A stretch of 64,000 nt of DNA from a virus, in the IMG/VR virus record IMGVR_UViG_3300042562_002450, positions 32,001-96,000 of that record. One strand, written 5' to 3'. Positions 44,294-64,000 of this stretch are shown piece by piece; within the stretch, counting starts at the first letter, position 1, and each line of letters starts with the position of its first letter. A program made the position numbers and the translations under genes. The notes below the pieces were generated by a model. That model did no database searches. It saw nothing but the letters and a program-made list of their open reading frames with translations, and was not told where the DNA came from.

Positions 44294-44300
44294 GACAAAT

Positions 44301-44459: not shown

Positions 44460-44464
44460 TAAAT

Positions 44465-44491: not shown

Positions 44492-44707
44492 GTTTAATCC
44501 TCAAACAAATATAATATAAAAATATTTTTTTTTTAAAAATTGCATAAACTTTTTTTTTAAAGTTTTAAACTTATTTTTATTTTAATTTATTGTATAGTAT
44601 ATTGCTTACATCTTTTGTTAAAACTATTTTATTATTTTGGATACAAAAAAATAAATATGTTAGAATTCTCTCTGGTGATATGTAGAAAAACACAATAGGA
44701 GAGAATA

Positions 44708-47700
44708 ATGTCATTACAAATTAAAAAGAAAAATCTTGGCAGCAATGAAGTAGATGGTTCAAAAATCTTACTTGCTCAAGGCCAAGCCATTAGAGGTTTC
44801 GACCAAAATGGAATTGAAAAAGACTTAATCGAATTCGGTGAGTCTGGTGAAATTTTAGTAAATGGTTCAGAGGTTACTTACAAGTCAGTAACGGATGTTA
44901 TTGAATCAGATCTTTCTAACGAAGTTGCTCGTGCAATCTCTGAGGAAGAAGCGCTCCTAGAAGAAATTAATTTAGGAATGAGAGTATCGAATGATCGTTG
45001 GGCTGCAACTCAAGCTGCAGATACCGCTATTCGTTCAGAATTTGCTGCTGCTGATAGTGTTGAACAATCAGCTCGTATTGCAGGAGATGAAACAGCTCAA
45101 GCGAATCTAGTTTCTGCTGAGGCAGGTCTCATACAACTAGTTGAAAGTGAAGAGCTTAGAGCATCAGATGCTGAAATTCTTATCGCAGGTAGAATAGATC
45201 AAGAAATCTTTGATCGCGTTGCAGGTGATGTTTCTACTTTAGCTGAGTCAAAGTCTTACACTGATGGGAAAGTTAGTCTTGTTTTAAGTAACCTAGATTC
45301 AACTGCTCTAGATTCATTAGTCGAAGTTGTTGGTGCTTTCCAACAAGCTGACCAAGATCTAAATAATGCAATCTCAGGTCTTGCAACTCAACTTGATGTG
45401 AGAATTGATCAAGTTGATATAGATGTTGATTCATTGGAAATGAGAATGCTTTCTGCTGAAGGCAATATCTCCAATGAAGTATCAAGAGCAACTTCTGAAG
45501 AGCTTCTTCTTAAATCAAGAGTTACTACTGCAGAACAAGATGTTGATTCTTTAGAGATGAGAATGCTTTCTGCGGAAGGTAACATTTCTAACGAAGTATC
45601 AAGAGCGACCTCTGAAGAGTTGCTACTTAAGTCTCGCGCTACTACCTCAGAGCAAGACATTGATTCTTTAGAAATGCGTATGCTTTCTTCTGAAGGAAAT
45701 ATTTCTAACGAAATTTCTCGTGCAACTTCTGAAGAATTACTTATTCGTTCTGATTTTGCTACTGCTGATGCTGCTAAGTTAGTTGAAGCAAAAGCATACA
45801 CAGACGCTCAGATTGCTACTATACCGGAAGTTGATCTTTCTGGCTTAGAGACTAGAGTATCAAATGCTGAAAGCGATATTGTTGCTCTGGAAGTTTATTC
45901 TAAAAATATTGTGCATGTTGATGCTGTTAACGGTATAGATGAAATCGGTCGCGGTTCATTACTTCGTCCATTTAAAACTATCAACTTTGCTTATTCACAA
46001 GTTCCGTCACTCGGAAACCCTTCAAACACTTCGTACAACGCTAACGTTGGAAAATTTGTTACTGAAAAACTAATTATTAACCTTGCTCCGGGTCGATATA
46101 CTGAGAACGTAGTTCTCGGATTTAAAAGAGCAAGAGTTCAATTAAAAGGTGACGGTGCAACTATTATTGGTGATGTTAAAACATCAGTAAAACTTGCCGA
46201 CTTTCCATGTGCTGCTTTAGAAAATATGAAAGCTAGTTTTCCTGCACCATTCACTGGTGTTTCAGCTTTCATGAATATCGAAATTTCGGGAAATGCTGGC
46301 GGAGGTCTTGAGTCAGACCCTACATCTAGTGTCTTTACCATTACCGGTCAAGCTTCTTTAGCTTTCGAAGAATCAACAGTAGCTGGTTTCGGTACAGGTC
46401 TTAACTGGGATAGTTCTCATGGTCAGTTCTATGCTAACCTTGATAGTGCTTCAGTTGGTAACTGGGTAGTTACCTCAAGCTATACAGCAAACATGGCAAG
46501 AGCTTTACCTAGTGGTGTAATTGAAGTTGATTCTTGTAACATTGCTTCTTCAACTACTTACAGAATGTTCTTCGGTGCTGTTCCTTATTCTTACTTAACA
46601 GATTTCGCTACATGGAACGTTGCTAGTAAGGGTACAGTAAACAAGGCTCCGAATTCAGGTCTTACACTTAAGGCGCACAATTCGACATTTGGTAACGTTA
46701 TCGGCCCTGCTTTAACTCTTGGTGAAATAGACGGTTGTAGAATTTACGATATTGATAGAACGATGAGAGGCACAGTTGATAACGGTTCAATCATCGGATC
46801 TACATCAACTTCTTATCTTGGTTTTGTTAATAACCAATTTAGAATTTTCTCTGGTTCAGGTGATCTTGCGTCTTTTTACAAACTTGGTCAAGCGGTAGGT
46901 GCTACTCGCTATAAGATGGATTCTGTCTCTCATACAACAATGTCTTTCAACAGAAGTTCATCAGGTGTATTAACTGCTAGAGCTTTAGATCTAGGAGCAG
47001 GAGTAAGCTTTGACTTCTTGGATGATGCACGCAGTATTTCTGTTGCTGATCCTGCTACCAACTACACAAGAACTGCAAGCACTGTAGACGCTTCTCTTGA
47101 AGGTATTGATACTGCTCTAGGTCTCAAAGCTAGTTCAGCATCTGTAATTGCCGGAAATGCTTCTAGTTTAGTTGAAGCTAAAGCTTATACAGATACTCAA
47201 ATTGCTGCTATTCCAAGTGTAGACCTTTCTTCTTATGAAACAATTGCAAATGTTGATTCAAAAGATGCTGCTAAACTTGTTGAAGCAAAAGCTTATGCAG
47301 ATCAGGTTTCATCTTTAGCTCAAGATAACGCTGAAGACTATACCGATTCTCAAATTGCTGCAATTCCAGCTGTTGATTTGTCTAACTACTATATTACATC
47401 AGAAGTAGATGAATTAATCGCAGGACAAGAAGCTTATTCTGATGAAGTTGCTGATAATACTCTAACAGCTTCTATCGAAGCTTCTAAAGCTTATGCCGAT
47501 GCGACTTTTGCACTAATAACAGATGTTGTATCTATTGATCAATCTCTAATGGCTGCGCAAGAAGAGACTGCTTTACTTCGTTCCGAGGCATTTGAAGCTA
47601 TTGGTACGGAGAATCTTAGAGCCTTTGCAGCTGAAGCTTCTCTTCAAAGCCAAATAACAAATGTTCTTTCAAATGTTGATGGAGCTGCTCTTGACTCATT

Positions 47701-48448
47701 GACTGAAATCGTATCAGCTTTTCAAGCTGCCGATTCAACTCTGAACGGAGCTATCACAAGCTTAGCTTCTTCTGCTTCTTCTGCTATAAGCACTGAACAG
47801 GCTGCTCGTATTGCTGCTGACTCTGCACTTCAAGGTGAAATTGATGCTGAAGAAGTTGCTCGTGCTGCGGCTGATACAACTCTTCAAAACAACATTAGCT
47901 CTGAAGCTTCTATTAGAGCAAGTGCAATTTCTTCTGTTCAATCAGCTGTTGATGCTGAAGAAACTAGAGCTATGGGTGTTGAAGCTCAGCTTCAATCTGA
48001 CCATGATGATCTTGATGGATATGCTCAAGATATTCGCTCTGATGTTGACGACTTGGATGGATACGCTCAGGATATTCGTTCTGATCTAGATAGCGAGATT
48101 TCTCGTGCTCAAGCAGCCGAGTCTTCAATCTCTTCAGCCTTGTCAGCCTTATCTGCAAGCCATGACTCAAGACTTGATGTACTTGAAGCACAAACAGATG
48201 GTCCATCTTTCCATAAAATGAAAATTGAAATTAGCACAAATCTTGTTTATGTTGAGCTTGCTCATCAAGCAATTGCTAACTCAATCGTAGTTTCTGTTGG
48301 TCGATTGATGGCTCACAAAGATGAAGACTTTACTGTTTCTGTTGTCGGTGGTGTAACACACCTCACTTGGATTGGCTCTATGGTCAGCCCAGATGGTGTT
48401 GAAGCAATCGAAAGCGGCGATAAAGTTTTTGTAACTTACGCTTACTAA
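44708..48448 (+). CDS. Long tail-fibre-like protein with internal beta-helix-like insert
   Basis: 1246 aa; coiled-coil repeats; VHVDAVNG.D..GRGS..RPFKTI motif; C-terminal domain shared with 38064 ORF. Confidence 0.7.
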   Translation: MSLQIKKKNLGSNEVDGSKILLAQGQAIRGFDQNGIEKDLIEFGESGEILVNGSEVTYKSVTDVIESDLSNEVARAISEEEALLEEINLGMRVSNDRWAATQAADTAIRSEFAAADSVEQSARIAGDETAQANLVSAEAGLIQLVESEELRASDAEILIAGRIDQEIFDRVAGDVSTLAESKSYTDGKVSLVLSNLDSTALDSLVEVVGAFQQADQDLNNAISGLATQLDVRIDQVDIDVDSLEMRMLSAEGNISNEVSRATSEELLLKSRVTTAEQDVDSLEMRMLSAEGNISNEVSRATSEELLLKSRATTSEQDIDSLEMRMLSSEGNISNEISRATSEELLIRSDFATADAAKLVEAKAYTDAQIATIPEVDLSGLETRVSNAESDIVALEVYSKNIVHVDAVNGIDEIGRGSLLRPFKTINFAYSQVPSLGNPSNTSYNANVGKFVTEKLIINLAPGRYTENVVLGFKRARVQLKGDGATIIGDVKTSVKLADFPCAALENMKASFPAPFTGVSAFMNIEISGNAGGGLESDPTSSVFTITGQASLAFEESTVAGFGTGLNWDSSHGQFYANLDSASVGNWVVTSSYTANMARALPSGVIEVDSCNIASSTTYRMFFGAVPYSYLTDFATWNVASKGTVNKAPNSGLTLKAHNSTFGNVIGPALTLGEIDGCRIYDIDRTMRGTVDNGSIIGSTSTSYLGFVNNQFRIFSGSGDLASFYKLGQAVGATRYKMDSVSHTTMSFNRSSSGVLTARALDLGAGVSFDFLDDARSISVADPATNYTRTASTVDASLEGIDTALGLKASSASVIAGNASSLVEAKAYTDTQIAAIPSVDLSSYETIANVDSKDAAKLVEAKAYADQVSSLAQDNAEDYTDSQIAAIPAVDLSNYYITSEVDELIAGQEAYSDEVADNTLTASIEASKAYADATFALITDVVSIDQSLMAAQEETALLRSEAFEAIGTENLRAFAAEASLQSQITNVLSNVDGAALDSLTEIVSAFQAADSTLNGAITSLASSASSAISTEQAARIAADSALQGEIDAEEVARAAADTTLQNNISSEASIRASAISSVQSAVDAEETRAMGVEAQLQSDHDDLDGYAQDIRSDVDDLDGYAQDIRSDLDSEISRAQAAESSISSALSALSASHDSRLDVLEAQTDGPSFHKMKIEISTNLVYVELAHQAIANSIVVSVGRLMAHKDEDFTVSVVGGVTHLTWIGSMVSPDGVEAIESGDKVFVTYAY
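45422..45745 (+). repeat. 117-nt tandem repeat, ~2.8 copies
   Basis: Units start 45422, 45539, 45656; encode DVDSLEMRMLSAEGNISNEVSRATSEELLLKSR.TT.EQ. Confidence 0.9.
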
Positions 48449-50438: not shown

Positions 50439-51485
50439 ATGATAAAACCAGTTGGCCTAGATGTTGGTACTCATATGTTAATTGCTTCTGAAGCTGATGC
50501 TTCTGGAGAAGTAACCTATAAAGAACAAGTTGATGCATTTTTTGTAATGGAATCAACAGATGAAGCAAAAAACATGCTAGACACACTCTCTGTCCCTTAC
50601 TCTGAAAAGAATGGAAAGACATATGTACTAGGTGAAGAAGCTAGAAAATTTGCAAATATGTTTAAGCAAGAGACTCGCCGCCCAATGCAAACGGGATGTC
50701 TTAATAAAAAAGACATTGAAGCACTTGGAATGCTTAACGCACTACTTTCTAATCTGCTAGAAAATGGCAATGGTTCCCCTATCGTCTATTCAGTCACATC
50801 TCAGCCATTAGGTAGTGAGATGAGCTTTGACTATCACAGGGCTCAAGTAGAGTCTCTATTAAAAGGAATGGGATATGAACCTAAGCCTATTCAAGAGGCT
50901 AGGGCAATTGCTCTCGCTGAGTTGGCCGCTGATCGCTTTACTGGTCTTGCTATCTCTTGTGGATCTGGCACTACCACTGTTTGGCTTGGTTTGTTGGGAA
51001 TGGATAATCCAAATTTTCAGTTTTCCATTGATCGTGGTGGTGATTGGATTGACACTAATGCTGCTGAGAATTTTGCCGGATTGACAAGAACTAAAGTTCA
51101 GACAGTAAAAGAGCGTGGCATTAAAATTAAAGAATATGAAAATGTTGAGACAGACCATCTTTCTGGCCATGAGCTTACTGAAGCTAGAGCTAAGCAAGCA
51201 CTATCTATTTACTATAGAGAGTATATCCGAGCTGTAGTTAAAGGTATTAAATATAAACTCGATAAAGAACAGCTACCTGAGTTTGATGGACCAATTCCAA
51301 TTGTTATTGCAGGTGGAACTAGTTCTCCTTCTGACTTTGTAGAAGTCTTCAAAGAAGAATGGGACAAAGCAAAGACTGGGCTAGATATCTCTGAAATCAG
51401 AAGAGCTAATGATCAATTCCGAGCTGTGTCTAAAGGTTGTTTAATTGCTGCTCAGCTTGAAGCAAAAAAGATGCTTAAGAAATAA
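50439..51485 (+). CDS. Actin/Hsp70-fold ATPase (ParM/MreB/FtsA superfamily)
   Basis: GLDVGT phosphate 1, QEARA connect 1, SCGSGTT phosphate 2, IAGGTS adenosine, AVSKG connect 2. Confidence 0.85.
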   Translation: MIKPVGLDVGTHMLIASEADASGEVTYKEQVDAFFVMESTDEAKNMLDTLSVPYSEKNGKTYVLGEEARKFANMFKQETRRPMQTGCLNKKDIEALGMLNALLSNLLENGNGSPIVYSVTSQPLGSEMSFDYHRAQVESLLKGMGYEPKPIQEARAIALAELAADRFTGLAISCGSGTTTVWLGLLGMDNPNFQFSIDRGGDWIDTNAAENFAGLTRTKVQTVKERGIKIKEYENVETDHLSGHELTEARAKQALSIYYREYIRAVVKGIKYKLDKEQLPEFDGPIPIVIAGGTSSPSDFVEVFKEEWDKAKTGLDISEIRRANDQFRAVSKGCLIAAQLEAKKMLKK

Positions 51486-52633: not shown

Positions 52634-53692
52634 ATGATTATCTCAGATAGCATCAATATATACTTAAAGACCACAGAGACATGTAACTTGAATTGTGATC
52701 ATTGTTTTACCTCTGGAAGCAAAGGTAGGAAGATTTTTTTTAATCCAGAGAAAACATTTCTTTTTCTAGATAAGCTTTTTAGTCATCAGAAATACAAGCA
52801 TAAAAAAGTTATTCTTCATGGTGGAGAGCCGATGCTTGCACCTGCCTCTGATATTAGAAAGATACATAAGTTAATAAAAGATAAGTATCCTGAAACAGAA
52901 TTTAGTCTACAGACAAATCTAGTATATAAGTTAAACGAAGAGCGGCAATCCTTAATTGATGATCTTTTTCTTGAAAAAGGAATGGGAACATCTTGGGATT
53001 ACAAGATGAGATTTGCTTCTTATCAACAGCAGCTTCAGTGGGAAGATAATGTTCGAGCTCTACTAGCCAAAGGTCATTACCTTTCTGTTATGGTATCTTT
53101 AAACAAAGACTTACTTGATAACTTTGAGCCTGTAGATATCATTCAGTACTTTATTGATCTTGGGATTCAGCATGTTCTTTTTGAACGCATAACCTCTAAT
53201 GGTAACGCTCTACTTAATCCTAACATTCAGCCTCAGAATAAAGATCTAGATGCTTGGCTTCTAAAGATGTATGAACAGACAATAGAATATAAGCTCTATG
53301 ATAAAATCCATAATATGTTTCTTGATGAAATAGCTACGACTTATGTTAATAGGATCCATGCTGGAAACAGATGTAGAAACTGTGAACAAAGCCTAGTTAC
53401 CATTAATGCTGATGGTAGTCTTTCTGGATGTCCTAATAGTGCTGCTAGCGAATACTGGGGAAATATTGAATGGTCGATCCAAGAAAATCTTTCCTCTAAA
53501 AAAAGATTGAAGACAATGGCTTGTGAGCTTAAGCGAAATGATAACTGCCTAACTTGTCCTGTGAATAGTATCTGCAATGGTGATTGTCATAGACTCCCCT
53601 GGCAAGGTGATATCTGCGCGGCTCCCAAAAGCCTAATGAAGATGATGAAAGAACAAAATAAGATTGAAGATTACAGAAAGTTAATGTTATGA
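52634..53692 (+). CDS. Radical SAM/SPASM protein 1
   Basis: CNLNCDHC, HGGEP, QTNL; SPASM CEQ..INADG.LSGC, CLTCPVNSICNGDC..C. Confidence 0.93.
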   Translation: MIISDSINIYLKTTETCNLNCDHCFTSGSKGRKIFFNPEKTFLFLDKLFSHQKYKHKKVILHGGEPMLAPASDIRKIHKLIKDKYPETEFSLQTNLVYKLNEERQSLIDDLFLEKGMGTSWDYKMRFASYQQQLQWEDNVRALLAKGHYLSVMVSLNKDLLDNFEPVDIIQYFIDLGIQHVLFERITSNGNALLNPNIQPQNKDLDAWLLKMYEQTIEYKLYDKIHNMFLDEIATTYVNRIHAGNRCRNCEQSLVTINADGSLSGCPNSAASEYWGNIEWSIQENLSSKKRLKTMACELKRNDNCLTCPVNSICNGDCHRLPWQGDICAAPKSLMKMMKEQNKIEDYRKLML

Positions 53693-54144
53693 ATTGGAAA
53701 ATGAGATCTAAGATATATCACATGATGACTCCTGAGCCAGGAGACAATCTTGAGAAAGAAACCATTGTTGAAGAGTGGGACAAAAAAAGTATTATAAAAA
53801 GAGCAATCGAATATCCAACTTTTCAAACTAAAGAGTTATATTATCCAGCGAAGTCATATGCAATTGCTACATTGTATGCTATTCTTTTGACTGAAAATTT
53901 TGGTGGCGAACCTCTTGATTATTTAAAAGATCCAGAATTACTTGCAGGAAATGATCCATATTTCAAACCTTACGATAGCTCTAATAAAGATATTTATTCA
54001 ATAATTTGGAGCCATATTTTTCTAGCATTGGAAGATGGTTCAGAAAAAACTTCTGAAAATTTTAATAAATCTGTACAATATTTCTACGAGGAATTTTTAC
54101 TTGCTGAAAATACAAAAGTCTACTTGCCTCCTGACGAAAGATGA
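53689..54144 (+). CDS. Hypothetical protein in radical SAM cluster
   Basis: 151 aa, ATGA-coupled to rSAM 1. Confidence 0.75.
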   Translation: MNWKMRSKIYHMMTPEPGDNLEKETIVEEWDKKSIIKRAIEYPTFQTKELYYPAKSYAIATLYAILLTENFGGEPLDYLKDPELLAGNDPYFKPYDSSNKDIYSIIWSHIFLALEDGSEKTSENFNKSVQYFYEEFLLAENTKVYLPPDER

Positions 54145-54634
54145 AATCAATAGTCTTATCTATGACTATGATCTATATCTATCTAAGAGCTTTTACATAA
54201 TCAATAAAGAACGGAAAGAATACAATGAAGATAATCATTCTCCAGATTTTATGTCTCATATACAAAAACTTGAAAAAGCATCCGGTGAAGGCTGCACTAT
54301 CATTGTTAAGAATATGGAAAGATATAACAGCCAAATACAAGAAACGGCAGAAGAGCTAGCACCAGGAACAGACGTTCATCTTTACTTAGTATTCGCTGAA
54401 GAAAGTGGAGATAGTTTTAATTGGCATAGAGATGATAAACCAGTTTGGATAAAAATGATCTATGGTGAGAAATTTTTTTCAATTAGATCAAGAGCAAAAG
54501 AAACTGTTTTCATAGATTCCTATAAAGTAAAAGAAAATGGATACTTATATATTGGATTAAGAGAGCATAGAGCTGAACCAATGGGACCATCTGCTATGTT
54601 AAGCTTTGGCTTGCCCAATCAAGAAGATCTCTAA
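54035..54634 (+). CDS. JmjC/cupin-like Fe(II) oxygenase (start uncertain)
   Basis: FNWHRDD..VWIKMIYGEK, LYIG..EHRA..SAMLSFG. Confidence 0.7.
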   Translation: MVQKKLLKILINLYNISTRNFYLLKIQKSTCLLTKDEINSLIYDYDLYLSKSFYIINKERKEYNEDNHSPDFMSHIQKLEKASGEGCTIIVKNMERYNSQIQETAEELAPGTDVHLYLVFAEESGDSFNWHRDDKPVWIKMIYGEKFFSIRSRAKETVFIDSYKVKENGYLYIGLREHRAEPMGPSAMLSFGLPNQEDL

Positions 54635-55532
54635 AACCACTACATGATTTTTCAATTGATTTAACATCGCGATAATGTTCTGTTAAGCATCGTCCCAAGT
54701 AAGGACATGCTGAACATATCGGATTTGATTTAACCTTAGTCTTTTCTAATCTAGCCCATAACAAGTATTCGTTAAAGCTATCCATCTCAAAAAAGTACTC
54801 ATTTTGTTCCAGATCAAACTCGAGAACGCCAAACTTTCCATTGGGAGTAATATAAACATGGCTATCACTATAAGCAGAATATAAACCACTGAGACTATCC
54901 TTGATCCTGTTTTTATTTATAAATGTAAAGTTTTTACGAATAGGAGAGATTAACCATTGCTTAACAAATTCTTCATACTCCTTATCAGTTACAGGTAAGG
55001 TATTTGCTTGGTTAGATGAGTATGGCTTTATCTCAACTGAAACTACATTTTGATATGTATTAAGTATACCGATCATCCTGTTAATGTCTAATTTCAACAA
55101 GTTAGGTGATGCCAACATTAGTATGGCAATTGGTTTCGATATCTTAGCCATGTTACTAAGTACCAACTCATGCTTCTCTCTGGCTTCAAAATCTAAGCTA
55201 ACAGAAAGATCTACATAGTCATGTAAGAAATATGAATTTATTTTAGAAAGATTTGTGATAACACTTATGCTTGGTTTCGAATAAACATTTAAAATTTCAT
55301 CTAATTTTTCCAAATAAGTAGGAGAAAGCAATCCTACTTCTCCACCATACAGATCTACGTGCTCTATGTAATAGCCATGGCTTCTTATCTCTTCAACCAT
55401 TGCAACAAGCCTTGATGGATCTAGTTTCTTTTGATCAGCTAATTGTTCTGGTCTAAGATAACAAAACTCACATCTAAAGTTACAAAGATATGTTGGATTT
55501 AAAGATATTGTTAATGGCTTAGCAGAGTCCAT
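54594..55532 (-). CDS. Radical SAM/SPASM-type protein 2
   Basis: CNFRCEFC, YGGE, ITNL; C-terminal CSACPYLGRC..C. Confidence 0.92.
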   Translation of the reverse strand: MDSAKPLTISLNPTYLCNFRCEFCYLRPEQLADQKKLDPSRLVAMVEEIRSHGYYIEHVDLYGGEVGLLSPTYLEKLDEILNVYSKPSISVITNLSKINSYFLHDYVDLSVSLDFEAREKHELVLSNMAKISKPIAILMLASPNLLKLDINRMIGILNTYQNVVSVEIKPYSSNQANTLPVTDKEYEEFVKQWLISPIRKNFTFINKNRIKDSLSGLYSAYSDSHVYITPNGKFGVLEFDLEQNEYFFEMDSFNEYLLWARLEKTKVKSNPICSACPYLGRCLTEHYRDVKSIEKSCSGFRDLLDWASQSLT

Positions 55533-56538
55533 GTTCTATTGCTCTCTTTCTAAACTCTTTCATTTTGACACAGCTTTCTTCGACAAGATTGTGCCTCTTT
55601 AGATCTTGAACTGTTTTATAGCATCCATTACATATAATAAAGTTTGGACAAGAAAGACATTCTTCTTTTTGATACTGAATGTTATGATCTGACTGTAGTG
55701 GCTTAAAGAATTCTCCAGCCATCTCTTTTTCAAAATCAATAGGATATTCCTGATCATCTCCCAATGATCCACATGATCCATACTCATATCCACTTTCGGA
55801 AACAGGCTGCAGATTTCTTATTCCCTCATCGCATTTTCTATTCTGAGGACATGTTGTAAATTCAGAGCCTTTGAGTCTCATAAGCATTTGTTTGGTAGAG
55901 TATTCCCATTCAGATAATCCAGCCTCGTATACGTTCATGTATATCTCATACATGTAACCAATAGGGAAAGGTCTCCCTTCTCTACCTGATGCCATTGCAT
56001 AATTCATCTTGCATTCAGCGCCGATATGTTTCGCAAGCCTTACATTGTTTAGTGCAAGATGCTTGTTATCTTCCGTAATTACAGAAATGAAATGTGGAAC
56101 ATATCCAAAGTCACCTTTGAATTTGTCTATAACTTTTAAAAATATTTCCTCAGTAAAGACTTGTCCTGGTCGTATTTGTCGGCTATCGCCATAATGAAAT
56201 GAAGTACATATTTGAACCTGAGATTGACTAAAAAGTTCTCTCCATTTGTCTGGATGAAGCCAATAGTCCCATAAGTTAGTAGTAAAACTGATGACACAAT
56301 CTGTCATCTTTCTTTCTTCTAGCATCTTAATTATTTGCCAGTAATACTCAGGAGATACCATAAGAGGATCTCCTCCATTTACTATTATTGTTTTAGTTTC
56401 TGGGAATCTATCAAGAAATTGACGGACCTTGTCTATATCAAGATCATCGATCGGTTTATTAGATTTTGCAATCTCTGTTGAGCTACAGAACGTACATGAG
56501 AAATTACACCTTTGCGTTGGCTTAATGATGAGATCCAT
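55519..56538 (-). CDS. Radical SAM/SPASM protein 3
   Basis: CNFSCTFC, NGGDP, TTNL; CPQNRKC..GSC, CLSCPNFIICNGC..C. Confidence 0.93.
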   Translation of the reverse strand: MDLIIKPTQRCNFSCTFCSSTEIAKSNKPIDDLDIDKVRQFLDRFPETKTIIVNGGDPLMVSPEYYWQIIKMLEERKMTDCVISFTTNLWDYWLHPDKWRELFSQSQVQICTSFHYGDSRQIRPGQVFTEEIFLKVIDKFKGDFGYVPHFISVITEDNKHLALNNVRLAKHIGAECKMNYAMASGREGRPFPIGYMYEIYMNVYEAGLSEWEYSTKQMLMRLKGSEFTTCPQNRKCDEGIRNLQPVSESGYEYGSCGSLGDDQEYPIDFEKEMAGEFFKPLQSDHNIQYQKEECLSCPNFIICNGCYKTVQDLKRHNLVEESCVKMKEFRKRAIEHGLC

Positions 56539-56630
56539 GCTTTCCTATTGTATTAAATTTTTAATTAATATATAATAACTTATCATAGTATAGTTTACAC
56601 TAACTTTAAAGTGATTTTAAAGGCAACCAG

Positions 56631-57365
56631 ATGGCAATAGTAAAAGATGAAGGTATCACAAGAGAAGATATCATCAATAAATTTAACTTGAGAGTAAGAG
56701 ACTGGGTAGCTTCAAATGTTACTCTACTTGGAAATAGAACTTATACAGCAAGTCATTCTGTATGGAATGGAACTCCAGGTTGGAAAAATGGTGGTGACAC
56801 TTCAGGTCCTGCGTACAGAGTGACTAGAACATTAAACTCGACAGCAGCAGCACTTGCTCTTAATTCAACAAATGCTGGTGGTGCAACAGACTCAATATTG
56901 AATACAGACCGTATACTTTCTGAAGTAATGCTTACTAGTGATTTTACTCCTGACGTAGGTGCAGCAAATAGCACTGGGCATGTAATTAAAATATTAAGAG
57001 ACATGATGGCTTCATACTCAAGAGTTCACCAGATTCGTATTCAGAATATAGGAAATCTTACATTCTCAATTTCTGGAGTAGCAGGAACTATGCTGTCTGA
57101 TACTGGAGTTGCAATTGGAACGACAACCAGACCAACAGCTATTGCTTTGATGAATACAGATATGGATTTATATATAAATACTAATAATTTAAAAGCTGGT
57201 GGCACTCTTGATGCAGATAAGTTCAACAACTTTCTTGAAACATGTAGATCTATATGGCTTAATCGCTGTGTAAACTCAGGAGTGCTAGAAACATTTAACT
57301 TTAGCTATTGCCACTCATCATGTCATTCAAATGTTACTTGTTATAACTCAAGAGGCCGAAGGTAA
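56631..57365 (+). CDS. Putative radical SAM substrate protein A (C-terminal CHSSCHS motif)
   Basis: 244 aa, Thr/Ala/Gly/Asn-rich; ends FSYCHSSCHSNVTCYNSRGRR. Confidence 0.75.
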   Translation: MAIVKDEGITREDIINKFNLRVRDWVASNVTLLGNRTYTASHSVWNGTPGWKNGGDTSGPAYRVTRTLNSTAAALALNSTNAGGATDSILNTDRILSEVMLTSDFTPDVGAANSTGHVIKILRDMMASYSRVHQIRIQNIGNLTFSISGVAGTMLSDTGVAIGTTTRPTAIALMNTDMDLYINTNNLKAGGTLDADKFNNFLETCRSIWLNRCVNSGVLETFNFSYCHSSCHSNVTCYNSRGRR

Positions 57366-57369
57366 AGTT

Positions 57370-57987
57370 ATGTCTATTATTTTAAATAATACAATTACTA
57401 GAGAAAATATTATTGCAAAATTTAATGAAAGAGTTAGAGACTGGGTAGTCTCTAATACTAACTTCTTAAATGCGACTCCAGTATGGAATCAAACTGTTGG
57501 TTACATAACAGCAAACAGCTCAGCTTTTGGTGGAGGTATTAACCGGATAACAGAAGTTTCGGCTACTCCAGTTTCTATTCAGGTCACAGATTTAATATCT
57601 AACATCGGTGCTGATAATTCAGCTGCAGGAAAAATCGTAAAAGTATTAAAAGATTTCTTAATCTTATATGCAAATAATCATAGAATAACATTAAACAATA
57701 CTGGGAATCTTGCTCCAGCAAATTATGTTGGAGTCGCAAGACTTAATGGAACGCCACTTGCAACACAAACTGCAATAGGAACTGATGTTGACGCTGCAGC
57801 AATTGCAAGTAATGTTTCTAATGGTCAACTTATAACTGCATTAAATCTTAATAGTTTTATTGAGTCATGTAGAACAATTTGGACTAATAGAGCATTCACT
57901 CCAAGCTTAGAAACATTTAATTATAGTTATTGTCATTCATCGTGCCACTCAAATGTTACTTGTTACAATTCAAGAGGTCGAAGGTAA
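57370..57987 (+). CDS. Putative radical SAM substrate protein B, paralog of A (start corrected to 57370)
   Basis: 205 aa; ITRENIIAKFNERVRDWV matches ITREDIINKFNLRVRDWV; ends YSYCHSSCHSNVTCYNSRGRR. Confidence 0.75.
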   Translation: MSIILNNTITRENIIAKFNERVRDWVVSNTNFLNATPVWNQTVGYITANSSAFGGGINRITEVSATPVSIQVTDLISNIGADNSAAGKIVKVLKDFLILYANNHRITLNNTGNLAPANYVGVARLNGTPLATQTAIGTDVDAAAIASNVSNGQLITALNLNSFIESCRTIWTNRAFTPSLETFNYSYCHSSCHSNVTCYNSRGRR

Positions 57988-57995
57988 GGTTATCT

Positions 57996-59132
57996 ATGGA
58001 GAAAACCTTAATAAACAAAGATGGCCCAAAGAGTATTAATGATTTCTTGAAGATCAAAGAGTCATATAAAACAAAAGACTCAATGCTTCTCTCTATATTT
58101 AAAGAGAAGACTCCACCTTATACTGAGATTGAAATTTCTTTCTTTGAACTATGCAATCTACATTGTCGTTTTTGCTGGCAAGATAATTATAATCCCACTG
58201 GAATTAATTCAATTAAAGAAAAAGCAGAAATTGTAATCGACTATCTAGATAAGCAAAAGGAAAGGCTACAGCCAAATATTCAAGTACACATGCTTGGTGG
58301 TGAGCTCTTTGAAGATAGCAATGATTACTATGATCAGTATTATTCTTTTATTAGTTCTATTTCTGAATATGTAAAAGCTAAAATGCCTGAAAAACATTTA
58401 CGCTTTGTCTTTTTAACTAATATGAATTTTCAAAAAGATGAGACCAAAATGAAGCTGGAGCATTTCCTCTTAAAGCTTCAACTTAAAGAAATTAAGTTTA
58501 TTCTAACTACATCTTGGGATCCAACAGGTCGCCCACTCAAAGGTGATATTGAGACTCAGTTCCATAAGAACATTACTTACTTTAAGGAGTATCTAAGTGA
58601 GGTAACTTTCGTATTAACGAAATCAACAATAAACCGACTTTTACAAGATAAAAATGATTACCTTGATCTATTAGTAAATCAAGGCTTTAACATCGATTAT
58701 GATTACTATATGCCCACAACCTGGGTTGATCAAATGATGCCTAGTGATAGAGATCTGCTTAATGCCTTTAGGTATCTAATTTATAAATATCCAAATATCC
58801 GTAAGTTAAAAGCATGGACAAGCAAGGAACCTGGAGAAGGAACTATCAGTTGTGCTAGCCTTAATAAGATAACAATACTACCAGATGGTACTATTACTAA
58901 CTGTAGACATCTTAAATATGATCAAAAAGATTTTGAAAGCAAGGTGCAAAATGAATCAAATAGTGATATGATTCTAACCTATCTATCAAAGCGCGAGTGT
59001 TTAAACTGCCCTTACTTTAAGGAGTGTCCTCTAAGTTGTTTCCTTATGGCTGATCATAAGAAATTTAATGGAAACTTAGAGCTTTCTGAGTGTCTTTATA
59101 GTATCCTTTTTAAGGAAAAATATAAGAGGTAA
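57996..59132 (+). CDS. Radical SAM/SPASM protein 4 (start corrected to 57996)
   Basis: CNLHCRFC, LGGE, LTNM; CASL..ILPDG..TNC, CLNCPYFKECPLSC..C. Confidence 0.92.
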   Translation: MEKTLINKDGPKSINDFLKIKESYKTKDSMLLSIFKEKTPPYTEIEISFFELCNLHCRFCWQDNYNPTGINSIKEKAEIVIDYLDKQKERLQPNIQVHMLGGELFEDSNDYYDQYYSFISSISEYVKAKMPEKHLRFVFLTNMNFQKDETKMKLEHFLLKLQLKEIKFILTTSWDPTGRPLKGDIETQFHKNITYFKEYLSEVTFVLTKSTINRLLQDKNDYLDLLVNQGFNIDYDYYMPTTWVDQMMPSDRDLLNAFRYLIYKYPNIRKLKAWTSKEPGEGTISCASLNKITILPDGTITNCRHLKYDQKDFESKVQNESNSDMILTYLSKRECLNCPYFKECPLSCFLMADHKKFNGNLELSECLYSILFKEKYKR

Positions 59133-59134
59133 AT

Positions 59135-59866
59135 ATGAATACTAAAACTTTAATTAAAACATTGCCTTTATCAACTGATGATTTGATTTCTCTTTTTGAT
59201 AATCCAGGCCAGATCTTAGATATTGATTATTCTAAATCATCTTTAAAGGATGATGCATTTTTTGCATATGTTTCTAATGTTAAGATTCAATGTCGTCTTC
59301 ATGGTTATGAGGATCTCTCCTATAATGAAAAAGAAAGATTATTAAATTCATTTATTAATTCAAAATATACAATGGAAATTGAAAATCTAAAAGAAACTAT
59401 TGTTGGTATTCTACTTAATGCAGATCCTAAAAGTATTTCTTTTTTCAAAGAAGATGAAATTGAAAAATACAAAGTAGAAAATAGAGATAGATTAAATCAG
59501 CTAGTTCAATTTTTTAATTCAATGCTAATAATGATTCCATCTATATCTAGTGATTTTAAGAAACTCTTTATAGACACAGGGATAGAGGATGGCTCAATAG
59601 CAGAGATTGATGGAACTGATTTTATAACTCCAAATATTTATAACTTAACTTTTTATCCAGGTTTTATTGATCTCTTTATTGGCAATCAAGAAGAAGAACA
59701 TTCTTTAGTCTTTTACAAAGGTGTTATCGATAGCTACCAATATAAAAATAAAAGCTTTTTCTCTCTTCTTACTGATAATGAAACAGCACCAAATCTAATT
59801 ACAATTTTTAATTATTTCTTTATTGAAAATGAAGAAAGTGAAAAAGAACTAAAAGAAGCCATCTAA
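59135..59866 (+). CDS. Hypothetical protein in radical SAM cluster
   Basis: 243 aa, GAGG RBS. Confidence 0.75.
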   Translation: MNTKTLIKTLPLSTDDLISLFDNPGQILDIDYSKSSLKDDAFFAYVSNVKIQCRLHGYEDLSYNEKERLLNSFINSKYTMEIENLKETIVGILLNADPKSISFFKEDEIEKYKVENRDRLNQLVQFFNSMLIMIPSISSDFKKLFIDTGIEDGSIAEIDGTDFITPNIYNLTFYPGFIDLFIGNQEEEHSLVFYKGVIDSYQYKNKSFFSLLTDNETAPNLITIFNYFFIENEESEKELKEAI

Positions 59867-59880
59867 CAAAGGTAAAAAAT

Positions 59881-61011
59881 ATGATCCACTTCCTAGGTAA
59901 AGTATTCCTTGAATATACTGAAACCAAACCACAACTTGACCATATGACTGTAAAGCCATCTCAATATATAAGAATTGTAGATAGAGGGCTTGCTAACATT
60001 ATGGATAGTTACTCAATCAATAAGCACATTGCAAACTTTAAAGATGTAGAAGAATGTCTTGAGAAATTCGTAACATTTGATAATTTTATTTCTTTCCTTA
60101 ATGAGAAAGAAAAAGAAGAAAGAGTTATTATTTACTGTGATGAAGTCTCTATGCCAAAACTTCTTTGTAGTCTTTGGAAGAGTATCTTCCCTGGCATAAC
60201 TAAAGAAATTGCATATAGTTTTTATGTCTCATATAAAGACAATGAATACTTCAGAAGAGATGACAGAAATGAGTATATTGAGATAGATATTAATAGTGCT
60301 AAAATAGAAAAGACAGCATTCCTTACTCGTTACTGGGACTTAGATAGAGAACTTTTTTATTCTTATTTTGATAATGCAGAATCTTTTAGTCTTGAGAATA
60401 AAGAAACAGCAATTGGCCTTGAGTTTGCCTTCACCAAGTTATTGCTAGACAATGAAAGATTTAAGCCTGTTTTTTCTGAGAAGTTAGAATATCTATATAA
60501 AAAGAATATCTCTAAAGAAATCATTTTCATGATCTCAACTATAAGAGAACATTGTCTTATTCTTCTAAGAAAAAAAGGAATAATGAATGAGATCATGCTT
60601 AATGACACATCGGTAATCGACTATCTTAAAGGACAGGAAAGATATAATATTCTTTTTGATGGGAACGTTAAGCATGCACCAGAGACCTATGATTATCTTA
60701 GATCTAAAGGAAACATTTTAAAACTTATTTCAGATCTTACATTTGACTGTTCAGTTATCCACAAAGAGATAAATCCAAGTTTTGTTTCTTTTGAAGAATT
60801 TAAACAAGAAAATCCAATTTGTTCATATATTCTTGAACAAAAGAAAGAACCTATTCTTGAAGACTTAATGGATGCTAATATTCTTAAGTTCTCTAATTAT
60901 CATTTCATTAGAAGTTATGTACAAACTGGTATTTTTAATTACTTTCTTCTTCAGTCTATTTGCATTACAAATGAAGCCAACCCTTCAGCACTAGATGCTC
61001 TTAAAGTCTAA
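59881..61011 (+). CDS. Hypothetical protein in radical SAM cluster
   Basis: 376 aa, AAGG RBS. Confidence 0.75.
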   Translation: MIHFLGKVFLEYTETKPQLDHMTVKPSQYIRIVDRGLANIMDSYSINKHIANFKDVEECLEKFVTFDNFISFLNEKEKEERVIIYCDEVSMPKLLCSLWKSIFPGITKEIAYSFYVSYKDNEYFRRDDRNEYIEIDINSAKIEKTAFLTRYWDLDRELFYSYFDNAESFSLENKETAIGLEFAFTKLLLDNERFKPVFSEKLEYLYKKNISKEIIFMISTIREHCLILLRKKGIMNEIMLNDTSVIDYLKGQERYNILFDGNVKHAPETYDYLRSKGNILKLISDLTFDCSVIHKEINPSFVSFEEFKQENPICSYILEQKKEPILEDLMDANILKFSNYHFIRSYVQTGIFNYFLLQSICITNEANPSALDALKV

Positions 61012-61468
61012 TCAGCTACTTAATAGAATCAATAAGGAAGGATTTGTATTTGCAGAATACGATCCTTCTTTAATACAATATCTTCAATCTCATGAAGATA
61101 GAATTCTTATTCTAAAAGAATGGATTAAAGAGATAATAGATATAGAAGGTGAAACTCTGTATGCAGACTGGGAAGCTCTAGATAAAGACCAATCCATCAA
61201 GCTCCATTATCATGTTATCCCTGGATCTTTTCAAGCAGTAACATGGGTTCCTGAAAATAACTTTGAAGGTAGAGAATTCCTATACGGCATAAAGGATGAA
61301 ATCTTAAAGGTAAAGCCCAGACTGGGTCTTATTTGTTTCTTTAAACCAAATGATGAAAACTATATACATGGAGTGGCTCCACTACTTAGCGACACTAAGG
61401 TCTATAGCTATGGCTTTACTAGTTCAGTTTTGGATATTTCTCAAACAGAAAATGATATTTACGTATGA
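60995..61468 (+). CDS. 2OG-Fe(II) oxygenase-like protein
   Basis: LHYH..., FEGREF, KVKP..GLICFF, distal IHGV. Confidence 0.6.
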   Translation: MLLKSNQLLNRINKEGFVFAEYDPSLIQYLQSHEDRILILKEWIKEIIDIEGETLYADWEALDKDQSIKLHYHVIPGSFQAVTWVPENNFEGREFLYGIKDEILKVKPRLGLICFFKPNDENYIHGVAPLLSDTKVYSYGFTSSVLDISQTENDIYV

Positions 61469-62298
61469 ACATAACTGCTAAGCAGGATAACTTCTTGATC
61501 GGCTTTTAGCTTCTCGACTTTATGAACAAATCTTGGATTATAAGTATTTAAGAATAAGACCATTCCATCTTTAATTTCAATTTTAGTTTCTTTAATTATA
61601 TTTCCACTTCTGCAAATACCTTTCTGGTCTAACTCTATTGTTAAGAGATCTCTTTCTCCAATAACTAGTTCTCTTCCTTCTATCTTTTTAGAGTTAGAGA
61701 AGTAATTGAATATCATATAATAGACCCCAGGTGTGTAATCCATATGGAAACTATACGGTCCTCTTGTGTCTAATTCATTTTCTTTATATCTGTACTTCAG
61801 AGCATCTGTAGATATTATTCTCCTATCTAATCTTAATGGTCCAGAATACTTAGGGACATTAAGAACTATATAGTTTAACTCTTCAGCATTTGAATTCAAT
61901 ATACTTAATGGTAGGTTGTCATCTTTAAAAAAGACAATGCTGTTTATCTTTTCTCTTACCTTTTCATGCACATCATAGTGAGCTACAAAGTAGCCATCAT
62001 GTTGCATGTCGCGCCAAAAGTAATCAAAACTATTTTTCTTATTACCAATGAAAGAGATTGGGATAAAGCTTCCAGCTTTATACTCTGATGAGCTATCTTT
62101 ACTATAGATTTCGTCTATATAGTATCCATCCTCTGTGACCTTAATGAATTCAAATTCAAGATTAGGTAGGAATACCATCTCTCCATAAAGATCCGTAAAA
62201 TAGGAATAAAGCCATGACTTTTTAAATTCATCAGGAGTTCCAAACCAGCCCTTACCTTTAGTAAAGAAATTAATAGTTTCTGGTGTCATTAGTCCCAC
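61459..62298 (-). CDS. 2OG-Fe(II) oxygenase-like protein
   Basis: FHMD, IEGREL, NTYNPRFVHKV. Confidence 0.65.
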   Translation of the reverse strand: MGLMTPETINFFTKGKGWFGTPDEFKKSWLYSYFTDLYGEMVFLPNLEFEFIKVTEDGYYIDEIYSKDSSSEYKAGSFIPISFIGNKKNSFDYFWRDMQHDGYFVAHYDVHEKVREKINSIVFFKDDNLPLSILNSNAEELNYIVLNVPKYSGPLRLDRRIISTDALKYRYKENELDTRGPYSFHMDYTPGVYYMIFNYFSNSKKIEGRELVIGERDLLTIELDQKGICRSGNIIKETKIEIKDGMVLFLNTYNPRFVHKVEKLKADQEVILLSSYVHT

Positions 62299-62827
62299 TT
62301 TTTATAAAAAAGTTAACTCTGTATGTATATCTATCTACTGGTGTTGGTAGTACTGCATGTGGATGTGTATAGAAGGTTGGCATAATAATCATTCTTCCGG
62401 CTCTTGGCTTTATAACTAAAGATTGTTTTGGAAAGACAATTTCTCCTCCTTCAATATCTTGGAGGTAAAGCAAGACTATAAAATTTCTCCTTAGTCCACC
62501 TTCAGAGATCTCATTATCGTAATGCATAGTCAAACCAGTGCCAGTCTTTAGTTTTAATAGCATACTATTTTCCAAATAATACTCAGCTTGAACCGTACCT
62601 ATTGATTGGAGATATTTGTCTACTTCCTTCTGGGCTAGTTCTCTAACATTAGAGTCAAAAGCTTTTAAGCTTTGAATCTTATCTAGGTTCATGAACTCAT
62701 GCTGCTCTCCATCGAAATTGATCTCTTTTGTTTTTCTTTGAAGATTTTCTTTCTCTAATGAAAAAATAAACTCTTCACAGGATTCTTTAGATATTAAATT
62801 ATCAATTTGGCGTATGAAGGTTTCCAT
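62270..62827 (-). CDS. 2OG-Fe(II) oxygenase (prolyl-hydroxylase-like)
   Basis: MHYD, LLYL..EGGEIVF, P.AGRMII.P, HAVLP, RY. Confidence 0.85.
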   Translation of the reverse strand: METFIRQIDNLISKESCEEFIFSLEKENLQRKTKEINFDGEQHEFMNLDKIQSLKAFDSNVRELAQKEVDKYLQSIGTVQAEYYLENSMLLKLKTGTGLTMHYDNEISEGGLRRNFIVLLYLQDIEGGEIVFPKQSLVIKPRAGRMIIMPTFYTHPHAVLPTPVDRYTYRVNFFIKSGTNDTRNY

Positions 62828-63750
62828 TATCTTTTTAACTTTATTTGATCAACAATAGAATGCATACTTAAGTGAGAAGGAATACTGTACATCTTTCCAG
62901 GCCCATGGAACTCTGAAACCTCATGATAAAAACGCGGATTAAAAACATTAACAAGAACACTGATGTTGGTATCTGCCCATATCTTATTCTCTTCTTTTCT
63001 ATCTGCAACTATATTATTTGTAGCTTCCCAGTCTTCGGTTATTATTGAATGAAACATATAATCATACCAGTCATAACTTCCAGTACATAAATAACGAGAA
63101 CCAGAGTTTTCTGTATTATAACTAACCATATTTACAAACATACGAAAATCAACATCATTATGAGGTAATATACTTCGTCCCTTGTTCCACTCTAAAGCGA
63201 TACAATCAAAGGCATCCATTGAAGACAATATTGGAGAAAAGCTAACTACTCGCTTCAGTTCTTTTTCTACATTCTTGTAAACATCTCGACATGTACTATT
63301 TTGGAAGTTTGGTTTTCCCCAAGCATTAGAATTGAATTTTAAAGTTTTAGATGGCTCTGTAGCTCTTTCACAACCAAGATCACTAAATGGTAGTCTTGGA
63401 AGTTTGTATAGTGTATTTTCAATATATGCTCTTGTATTGTTAGCTATAGCATATCCATGAGTAGATAATGCTGAGCCTATATTGCTAAATTCAATATCTC
63501 CCTTATTAAAGTTAATACCTTCAAAAGTAATATACTGATCTGAAGGATCTCCATACTCTTTGAATACATTCTCAAGTAAACGTACAAAACCTTGCTTTTT
63601 TACAATCTTAATAAAACCAGAGCTAGAGACTACAAGTTTTTTCTTATAAAGCATTTCAAAATATTTACAAAGATCAGACTCGAAGAATTCTTCAATGTTT
63701 CTAATATCAACAATATTGTAATCAAAGAAGTCTTTGGCAATCTTAAGCAT
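62827..63750 (-). CDS. 2OG-Fe(II) oxygenase-like protein
   Basis: PHND, NVFNPRFYHEV. Confidence 0.65.
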   Translation of the reverse strand: MLKIAKDFFDYNIVDIRNIEEFFESDLCKYFEMLYKKKLVVSSSGFIKIVKKQGFVRLLENVFKEYGDPSDQYITFEGINFNKGDIEFSNIGSALSTHGYAIANNTRAYIENTLYKLPRLPFSDLGCERATEPSKTLKFNSNAWGKPNFQNSTCRDVYKNVEKELKRVVSFSPILSSMDAFDCIALEWNKGRSILPHNDVDFRMFVNMVSYNTENSGSRYLCTGSYDWYDYMFHSIITEDWEATNNIVADRKEENKIWADTNISVLVNVFNPRFYHEVSEFHGPGKMYSIPSHLSMHSIVDQIKLKR

Positions 63751-64000
63751 GTAGCTTCTTTTCTTTTAGATTAATGCTATCTCTCCATTCCCTTGAGTTG
63801 ATGCCAATGCCACCTATGATTACATATAACTCTGAGTCAGAAGTTAGTTCTGTTACTCCATGGTATGTATTCTCAGCAAAAGCATTAATAAAACAGAGGA
63901 GACCAGGTATGGGCCGAACCTTTAAATTGTAATCAGGACTGACAATATGAAGGTCTCGCCCAACAAAGGTATTGTCTTTAGGTATGTAAAGAAGAACCTC
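63743..64000 (-). CDS. Partial 2OG-Fe(II) oxygenase-like protein (5' end outside window)
   Basis: Hand translation EVLLYIPKDNTFVGRDLHIV...KVRPIPGLLCFINAF..TYHGVTEL...KLHA*; resembles the 60995 ORF. Confidence 0.6.
   Translation of the reverse strand, partial: EVLLYIPKDNTFVGRDLHIVSPDYNLKVRPIPGLLCFINAFAENTYHGVTELTSDSELYVIIGGIGINSREWRDSINLKEKKLHA

Follow-up and report, generated by a model that had tools for sequence, protein, structure and literature searches.

A radical SAM and oxygenase kit of large phages and predatory bacteria with a putative substrate protein ending in Cys-His repeats

Gene content of the locus

We examined a 64-kb window of a lake phage (positions 32,001 to 96,000 of the IMG/VR virus record IMGVR_UViG_3300042562_002450), the end of which, from position 52634 onward, holds a dense set of enzyme genes. 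All open reading frames listed there by a first-pass annotation were found where it had placed them, and its description of tight packing with overlapping ends agrees with the gaps of −110 to +92 nt between neighbouring genes. Because near-identical locus DNA recurs in four further lake metagenome studies, the locus is not an assembly artefact. It encodes what we call the kit: four distinct radical SAM/SPASM enzymes, a JmjC-type oxygenase, three orphan proteins and a tail protein of about 200 aa, whose gene is duplicated in this phage.

The radical SAM enzymes are rS1 (52634..53692, plus strand), rS2 (54594..55532, minus), rS3 (55519..56538, minus) and rS4 (57996..59132, plus). All contain the CxxxCxxC motif, as first annotated, and match phrog_1802 (E 1e-31 to 3e-59); rS1, rS2 and rS3 also exceed the cut-off of Pfam Radical_SAM, and rS4 matches below it. 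C-terminal SPASM-type Cys clusters, ascribed to all four at first, were confirmed in three, as 60-sequence alignments revealed eight conserved auxiliary Cys in rS1 and in rS3 and seven in rS4, but only four in rS2. These four form the second cluster of rS2; its first auxiliary site has invariant His and acidic residues instead, with H225 and H286 at the expected ligand positions. The seven Cys of rS4 leave one site open, and CteB and PapB likewise have seven Cys and a first auxiliary site that is left open.

Profile scores place these enzymes only distantly. rS1 passes the TIGR04085 cut-off, and its nearest relatives, all weak, are YhhB (the top NCBIfam match), PapB, anSME, ChlB and CteB. Its 61 bits against YhhB (cut-off 445) is the best 3-CyFE score, and the YhhB, XyeB, GrrM, FxsB and AmcB models all stayed below cut-off. 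Kit enzymes scored 25-58 bits against the PapB, CteB and QhpD families (cut-offs 340-453), PapB being the most frequent weak match of rS4. The best matches of rS1, rS3 and rS4 are peptide maturases, as the earlier reading would have it, but that of rS2 is viperin (40 bits, cut-off 180). Since all enzyme-family matches are far below their cut-offs, the reaction types assigned here, with rS1 as a candidate His/Tyr cyclophane synthase and rS4 as a candidate thioether former, are extrapolated. We name no donor for the kit because our rS1 tree is a quick, unrooted one.

The three orphans, initially listed as unknown ORFs, all proved to be core members of the kit. They are u151 (53689..54144, plus; phrog_20737), u243 (59135..59866, plus; phrog_20767), a candidate recognition or scaffold protein, and the fast-evolving u376 (59881..61011, plus; phrog_36207). 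None of them matched a relevant NCBIfam or Pfam model or gave a match in PDB profile searches, the ESM Atlas gave no usable match for u243 or u376, and a relationship among the three families was undetectable. The structure model of u243 is confident, and comparing it with known folds gave neither a clear match nor an RRE, barrel fragments scoring best (Z 4.8); this is a blank and not evidence of a new fold. No ORF of the locus had a Pfam match to a PqqD-like RRE.

The six Fe(II)-oxygenase-like ORFs reported earlier all carry a metal-ligand triad, of the His-x-Asp...His type except at 60995. The gene at 54035..54634 (plus) encodes, judging from its orthologues, a JmjC-type (NO66/YcfD-like) enzyme: orthologues exceed the PF08007 cut-off (E 1e-13 and 2e-7), and the window protein itself lies below detection. 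Its residues H131, D133, K146 and H178, which include the H131-D133...H178 triad, are invariant in a 60-sequence alignment. As close orthologues are 176-177 aa long, the gene probably starts at a TTG at 54101 rather than at 54035. Among the window oxygenases, only the protein at 62270..62827 (minus) passes a Pfam 2OG cut-off (PF13640). The other four calls are based on motif and mutual profile similarity: 60995..61468 (plus; His-x-His...His), 61459..62298 (minus; H185-D187...H259), 62827..63750 (minus; H197-D199...H276) and 63743..64000 (minus), the 3' part of a 194-aa protein whose full gene spans record coordinates 95743-96327. A seventh oxygenase gene just beyond the window (record coordinates 96410-96949) marks the far end of the kit.

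The tail protein and the company it keeps

Tail proteins A (244 aa; 56631..57365, plus) and B (205 aa; 57370..57987, plus) are the putative substrates. As the first-pass annotation had seen, they are paralogues with a Cys/His/Ser-rich C-terminus, and their final 20 residues are identical. Their last 19 codons differ at eight nucleotides and at no amino acid, and these silent differences led us to reject gene conversion as the source of the identity. In protein B a folded body (1-185) precedes a disordered tail, YCHSSCHSNVTCYNSRGRR. The end consists of (C-H-x-S/N)x3-RGRR, which makes up the last 16-18 residues. Conservation is 0.83 in the tail versus 0.56 in the body, and Cys and His are enriched 16-fold and 12-fold in the tail.

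We then tabulated 278 distinct tails, which are related sequences and not independent trials. The residue following Cys is His in 94.8%, Tyr in 3.1%, Ser in 1.3% and Phe in 0.3%, and never Asp, Glu or Cys. His is exchanged mainly for Tyr, units without Cys are tolerated, and each tail has two to four His-x-Ser-type repeats. In the aromatic-X2-X3 units, X3 is Ser in 73.5%, Asn in 21.2%, Ala in 2.6% and Gly in 0.1%, and X2 is Gly in 21.7%. HaaB, YhhB, ScaB and MscB link His, Tyr or Phe at position i to the beta-carbon of residue i+2 (PMC11002830). Because Gly is common at X2 and nearly absent at X3, the tail pattern fits a need for a beta-carbon at X3, and the substitutions obey the triceptide rule. 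Covariations between tail and enzymes were also seen and are confounded by lineage.

The body ranges from 70 to 426 aa among homologues, some substrates being only 70-127 aa. Its model is confident (pLDDT 87) and the fold is common to distant homologues; no solved fold was found for it (best Z 4.7), again a blank rather than evidence of a new fold. None of 175 tail proteins had a hydrophobic N-terminal stretch, and no signal peptide was seen. Pfam domains, including peptidoglycan-binding ones, were likewise absent from the tail protein, and a weak test found no fused longer form.

In 60 distinct loci, for which rS3 was one of two search anchors, we found rS3 and rS4 60 times, rS1, rS2 and u243 59 times, u151 and the tail protein 55 times, the JmjC gene 50 times and u376 at least 42 times. 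The motif proteins therefore co-occur with the enzymes in 55 of 60 loci, the outcome that the earlier pathway reading called for. Each of the window's non-JmjC oxygenase families occurs in 7-12 loci. We accordingly rejected a core comprising all oxygenases: the claim that oxygenases belong to the pathway holds for the widely kept JmjC gene, but the six others are lineage-specific add-ons. Halogenases occur in the kits of some relatives. Gene orders are shuffled among the loci, and certain neighbours recur: the JmjC gene lies immediately before rS1 (45/60), rS1 immediately before the tail protein (40/60), u243 immediately after it (41/60), and u151 next to rS2, usually immediately after it (36/60). 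Among the gene clusters that recur, we recognised no protease or exporter family and none belonging to a nucleotide pathway. Cumulatively, these observations support the reading of a pathway that would modify the C-terminal peptide, and the tail is very probably the substrate of the kit enzymes.

The kit is present in hundreds of large phages; one kit enzyme gave 284 IMG/VR matches. These came from alignment-based scans; scanning IMG/VR with a single sequence, whether of the tail protein or of rS1, returned nothing. Cultured jumbo phages that carry it include Atu_ph07 and RSL2; these two, S13 and Phosso are available on laboratory hosts. When cultured phages were searched by tblastn with the tail protein, a weak match in Atu_ph07 was all that emerged. 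The system had been described as a phage one, but 18 of 401 Bdellovibrionota genomes carry it too, with chromosomal copies in predators. No plasmid copy was found, and no RNA holders are listed.

In 28 of 60 loci the kit is accompanied by a fibre-like gene of the gp176 family, and in six of 15 bacterial regions and in loci L014-L018 by a prepilin-S74 fibre gene; five of these latter genomes, those with the S74 gene at the kit, have only two to four S74 genes each. The kit thus often adjoins a chaperone-bearing fibre gene. The tail-fibre genes just upstream that had been suggested as partner (40928-48448) are at least 4 kb away. The conserved partner is instead a different fibre family, found in this phage roughly 5 kb beyond the point where the kit ends.

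Particle association and the proposed maturation pathway

A modified virion protein had been guessed as the product, and the particle proteome of Atu_ph07 bears on this. Its gp170 is a homologue of the tail protein (HHalign 97%, Foldseek E 7e-5) and was detected in particle preparations with eight peptides and 35% coverage (PMC6102473 Table S5). By contrast, gp164-169, gp171 and gp172 are absent, and no kit enzyme is listed (PMC6102473). The 32-kDa gp170 peaks in band 1, the top gel slice, far above its own mass, and is unique in this among 79 proteins of at most 60 kDa with at least three peptides. It has only three Cys, all in the tail. The phage of our window is uncultured, and this evidence comes from one other phage, whose particles were PEG-purified; RecA, RNR and topoisomerase were also detected, and the location of gp170 within the particle is not given (PMC6102473). 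The loading buffer as listed has no reductant, so the gel was possibly non-reducing, and disulfides between tails or aggregation could explain the top band. Nor is gp170 bound for the most part to the fibre gp176, because gp176 migrates close to the position expected from its mass (band 4). The S13 paper lists genes only, without a proteome, and we found no RSL2/RSF1 proteome in the literature searched. We consider it likely that the tail protein resides in the virion in phages.

We assign a probability of about 0.65 to the whole reading, that of a dedicated protein-maturation kit whose product is incorporated into the virion. During infection, the enzymes would act in the cytoplasm on a tail still joined to its body, presented by u243, u151 and u376 in place of an RRE. 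rS1, rS3 or both would join the His (or Tyr) ring to the beta-carbon of the Ser or Asn two residues on, giving three-residue cyclophanes, and rS4, through its open iron site, would join the Cys thiols in thioether bonds, either inside the tail or with an adjacent chain. We put such combined cyclophane and thioether chemistry at roughly even odds. The JmjC enzyme may hydroxylate His or Arg, rS2 would perform one further step, and the variable 2OG oxygenases, with the halogenases of some relatives, would add lineage-specific decoration. The matured protein would enter the virion as a detergent-resistant complex, its partner most likely being the family of chaperone-bearing fibres whose genes adjoin the kit, and its rigid cationic tail would serve attachment or stability; a fibre or attachment role is perhaps a little short of an even chance. 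Further points count against this maturation reading: for the copies in bacteria there is no virion that the product could join, and some substrates measure only 70-127 aa. A bolder version, which we hold to be doubtful, is covalent stapling: a polycyclic His-Ser/Cys scaffold linking tails between subunits or to the partner would form an enzyme-made virion polymer or adhesive tip, a device that jumbo phages and predatory bacteria would have passed to one another for attacking Gram-negative cells.

The likeliest alternative, improbable in our view, is that the tail is modified in an HxsA-like protein that is internal or ejected and binds DNA. Its site of action would be the envelope or cytoplasm, for superinfection exclusion, genome escort or counter-defence, rather than the surface or a fibre, and the top band would be due to disulfides or aggregation. 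HxsA has basic His-x-Ser repeats, two radical SAM maturases, a +8 Da change on SHRSS and DNA binding (PMC13128918). The H-x-S units and RGRR of the kit tail are in keeping with such a role, as are the bacterial copies lacking a virion and a proteome that does not place gp170 within the particle. However, fibre genes accompany the kit in phages and bacteria alike, its tail protein has neither signal peptide nor peptidoglycan-binding domain, and its enzymes have no more than the common fold to relate them to HxsB/HxsC. We give less credence to a true RiPP, in which the variable body (70-426 aa) is a long leader and a host protease releases the core-like tail as an antibacterial, metal-binding or signalling peptide; many tailoring enzymes and chromosomal copies in predators would suit it, but the recurring families of the 60 loci include no recognised protease or transporter, the confidently modelled body fold is conserved in distant homologues, and gp170 was recovered at high mass with 35% coverage. 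Similarly unlikely is a third alternative, in which the tail binds metal or Fe-S (CHxxCH) without being modified, and the enzymes serve to produce a small molecule or act on DNA or some other target. In its favour are the Cys/His richness of the tail, the viperin match of rS2 and an earlier proposal of tandem phage dioxygenase arrays as metabolite makers (PMC2938197). Against it, His gives way mainly to Tyr and never to Asp, Glu or Cys, Cys-less units are tolerated, metal binding needs neither a strict Ser/Asn at X3 nor a terminal RxRR, peptides are the substrates suggested by the SPASM-type clusters and by JmjC, and the recurring clusters include no recognised nucleotide-pathway family.

Relation to known systems

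Radical SAM and oxygenase genes appear in several jumbo-phage papers but are given no role there, and we found no description of the kit in the literature. Our reading ties a widespread set of such genes to one substrate and predicts the bonds formed. If it is true, a structural protein of a virus would join the targets of RiPP-type chemistry. Four radical SAM families that have yet to be characterised would also be gained, among them one whose auxiliary site is unusual in its His substitutions, and phages and predatory bacteria would prove to have a molecular device in common. We found no paper in which peptide-antibiotic chemistry is put to use on a virion protein, as would be the case here.

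The HXS anti-phage system (HxsA/B/C/D; Li et al. 2026, PMC13128918) resembles the kit in its folded His-x-Ser-repeat protein with several radical SAM maturases, perhaps in a small partner, since one of the orphans may be a functional analogue of HxsD, and in a product that is a protein and not a free peptide. Unlike HXS, the kit has four (up to ten) SPASM-type enzymes that are not HxsB/HxsC orthologues, a JmjC and 2OG oxygenases, and a tail with Cys before nearly every His and a terminal RGRR. Its substrate lacks a signal peptide and a peptidoglycan-binding domain, it is encoded by phages and predators, and a substrate homologue occurs in particle preparations. We rejected HXS membership, as the HxsB and HxsC models (TIGR03978, TIGR03977) gave at best 21-27 bits against cut-offs of 370 and 268 and there is no exported peptidoglycan-binding effector.

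With triceptides (YhhB, HaaB, ScaB, MscB; PMC11002830) the kit tail shares aromatic-X-(Ser/Asn/Ala) units and His/Tyr exchange. Membership was rejected on the YhhB score given above; the kit also differs in its folded 200-aa substrate, three further radical SAM enzymes, no protease or transporter, and cross-links that are putative. rS4 resembles CteB and PapB in its seven Cys and open first auxiliary site. Like these two ranthipeptide maturases, and like the protein thioether maturases QhpD and CrpC (PMC13692751), the kit would use SPASM enzymes to cross-link Cys in an adjacently encoded protein; unlike them, it has no Cys-x3-Asp/Glu motif and no recognised fused RRE, and combines several enzymes with a putative viral structural substrate. 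Finally, cyanophage tandem dioxygenase arrays with a MINA/NO66 homologue (Iyer et al. 2010, PMC2938197) likewise combine, within one phage, a JmjC enzyme with 2OG oxygenases of several unrelated kinds, and collagen-like and tail-collar proteins were proposed there as substrates of related bacterial clusters. Compared with these arrays as described in that paper, the kit adds four radical SAM enzymes and the Cys-His tail protein.

Composition and spread of the gene block

An ORF check of the window recovered all the genes listed by the first-pass annotation, which had described a candidate modification locus of radical SAM (rSAM) enzymes and Fe(II)-oxygenase-like ORFs around two paralogous proteins. 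The far end of this block, here called the kit, lies about 1 kb beyond the window at a seventh oxygenase. Its parent virus record (198,626 bp, 34% G+C) encodes a DNA polymerase, a primase-helicase, ribonucleotide reductase, PhoH and collagen-like fibre genes, and this region of it is near-identical in lake metagenomes from four further studies.

By tblastn, the rSAM proteins rS1 (52634) and rS2 (54594) occur together in the same 15 cultured-phage records, carriers being Atu_ph07, Phosso, the RSL2/RSF1/FLC group, S13 and pPa_SNUABM_DT01. IMG/VR searches gave 284 and 226 confirmed matches. We assembled 60 distinct loci of at least 19 kb, anchored on rS3 (55519) or rS1. These contained rS1 (59), rS2 (59), rS3 (60), rS4 (57996; 60), the orphans u243 (59), u151 (55) and u376 (42), the putative substrate or tail protein (55) and a JmjC oxygenase (50). 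The prevalent order is fibre, JmjC, rS1, tail protein, u243, u376, rS4 ... rS3, rS2, u151, and is rearranged in the window phage. In 41 of the 60 loci u243 directly follows the substrate; its predicted model showed no resemblance to an RRE. Further rSAM families are present in some loci and missing from others, as is a flavin halogenase. The recurring gene clusters of the 60 loci included no recognisable protease or transporter. The kit is real and widespread.

Several genes outside the kit were also noted. An actin-like protein (50439-51485, + strand; Pfam Volactin, E 1e-67) precedes the kit, and a gene of this type is conserved a short way upstream in four close relatives. A fifth CxxxCxxC protein (6039-7100, +) had neither a PHROG hit nor a match to kit families. 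Detached from the kit are homologues of two kit-associated families (34027-34767 and 28743-29318, both +): one belongs to a family that 15 other loci carry at their kit (E 3e-32); the other is one more 2OG oxygenase.

The enzymes and the tail of the putative substrate

All four rSAM proteins fall in phrog_1802. They are mutually distant (phmmer E 3e-7 to 0.06), and cultured jumbo phages hold an orthologue of each at 31-50% identity; they are four families of long standing and did not arise by recent duplication. Across 60 aligned orthologues per enzyme, the invariant auxiliary Cys number 8 in rS1, 8 in rS3 and 7 in rS4; rS2 retains four and also keeps H225, H286 and several acidic residues invariant. 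The models closest to rS1 are YhhB, PapB and anSME, and the closest structures ChlB, anSME and CteB. ChlB is a cyclophane synthase, and CteB and PapB bind Cys through an open auxiliary site. The top match of rS2 is viperin (40 versus 180 bits), to which we give little weight in either direction.

Metal triads are kept in the oxygenase-like ORFs of the window. Only 62270 exceeds its Pfam cut-off, and 54035 was assigned to JmjC via its orthologues. NO66, MINA and YcfD hydroxylate His or Arg on proteins. Some 2OG-type oxygenase is present in 54 of the 60 loci, each accessory family of the window in only 7-12. Upstream of the kit, 40928-48448 encodes a 1121-aa collagen-like tail fibre and a fibre-like protein of 1246 aa that is rich in repeats; the collagen repeats could be alternative clients of the accessory oxygenases.

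The two paralogues of the window are the only ORFs in the genome with an ending of the type described below. Their tails are identical in protein sequence, yet the coding DNA differs by 8 nucleotides over 19 codons, indicating selection on the peptide. In the AlphaFold2 model, residues 1-185 form a confidently predicted body, helical apart from a small sheet, and the tail is disordered. A profile search clustered at the 50% level found 360 relatives, and in four of four cultured phages inspected a protein with terminal C-H-x-S units and R-x-R-R directly follows rS1.

The usual tail consists of three C-H-x-(S/N) units followed by RGRR. Because the 278 distinct tails are related, their substitutions form a pattern and not a statistic: the residue following Cys is His (94.8%), Tyr (3.1%), Ser (1.3%) or Phe (0.3%), and never acidic or Cys; of the positions after His, X2 allows Gly (21.7%), and at X3 Ser, Asn and Ala together make up 97% and Gly 0.1%. 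The third unit in the window phage is C-Y-N-S. Known three-residue cyclophanes include the His-Ala link made by HaaB/ScaB, in which Tyr can replace His, the His/Tyr-Arg link of YhhB and the Phe-Ser link of MscB (PMC11002830). The tail substitutions match the needs of such a cyclophane, with an aromatic ring at position i and a beta-carbon at position i+2, and do not match those of a metal site. The analysis shows the make-up of the kit, the co-occurrence of its genes, the conservation of the tail, and the presence of a homologue in particles with an anomalous mobility (next section); all of the chemistry and the division of labour among the enzymes are inferred.

Three variations were noted. 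In four loci (L040, L070, L094, L099) the substrates are short, 70-127 aa, and end in the same tail; the kits there have up to five extra rSAMs. Cys-less His units accompany a second rS3 paralogue (L007, L008, L105/L204), and Tyr at X2 accompanies the flavin halogenase (5/7 versus 2/47; L025, L029, L032, L033, L169), both being confounded by lineage.

A tail-protein homologue in Atu_ph07 particles

With Foldseek the body matched phage proteins only, among them gp170 of Atu_ph07 (E 7e-5), a homology confirmed by HHalign (97%). In the proteome of a PEG-purified Atu_ph07 stock, Attai et al. (2018) listed gp170 at 31.89 kDa with 8 peptides and 35% coverage (PMC6102473, Table S5), a mass agreeing with our own translation; the kit enzymes and orphan proteins are absent from that table. 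The maximum of gp170 lies in band 1, the top gel slice, a position on which the authors did not comment. Among 79 proteins with 3 or more peptides and a mass of up to 60 kDa, it alone peaks there; the other 33 proteins between 25 and 40 kDa have their maximum in bands 4-13. The protein is thus present in the particle preparation in a high-mass form that resists SDS and heat. The PEG purification of the stock is a caveat, and since the listed buffer contains no reductant (PMC6102473), disulfides would give the same top band; the only three Cys of gp170 all lie within its tail.

Bacterial copies and relation to known systems

A fibre-like family has a member beside the kit genes in 28 of the 60 loci, and directly before JmjC in 22. 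The family includes the Atu_ph07 virion protein gp176 and gave weak tail-fibre and IMC-chaperone hits; the member in the window phage is at 101933-103198 of the whole record. Of 401 genomes from the phylum to which Bacteriovoracaceae belong, 18 have an rS1 orthologue, contigs of 2.4 and 2.8 Mb among them, and the tail protein is present in 14 of 15 bacterial regions fetched. A short prepilin-headed S74-chaperone fibre gene stands at the kit in 6 of these 15 and in L014-L018, in varying gene orders; five such genomes have just 2-4 S74 genes each. In Bdellovibrio, S74 fibres are adhesins that bind prey (PMC10769870). With close relatives excluded, all 16 kit proteins of the window phage have a bacterial copy as best match, and in a quick rS1 tree a 100% branch unites the window group and 10 bacterial copies. 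Exchange of the kit between phages and these predators is likely, and the predators are perhaps the host of the window phage.

Bacterial kits (L014-L019, L203-L217) often hold 1-6 additional rSAMs from another family, with members in RSL2 and pPa_SNUABM_DT01 too. A twin-arginine-like ORF of about 120 aa and a protein of about 190 aa recur beside the pilin-S74 fibre (L014:2234-2602, L105:11642-12004, L016:15209-15535, L014:467-1045); they may provide a way to export a substrate that lacks a signal peptide. The contig title of L016 (CAXPDR010000038.1) reads Flavobacteriaceae, probably wrongly; its genome belongs to the phylum sample that also contains Bacteriovoracaceae.

The literature searched only lists kit genes, without interpretation, and the kit is undescribed in the searchable literature. 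Its proposed mechanism is concrete and cheap to test. Enzyme family and substrate architecture rule out membership in HXS, triceptide or CrpC/QhpD systems. Triceptide synthases and CrpC/QhpD resemble the kit in its presumed chemistry. Closest in working is HXS, in which a protein with His-x-Ser repeats is matured by several rSAMs (PMC13128918), as we propose for the kit.
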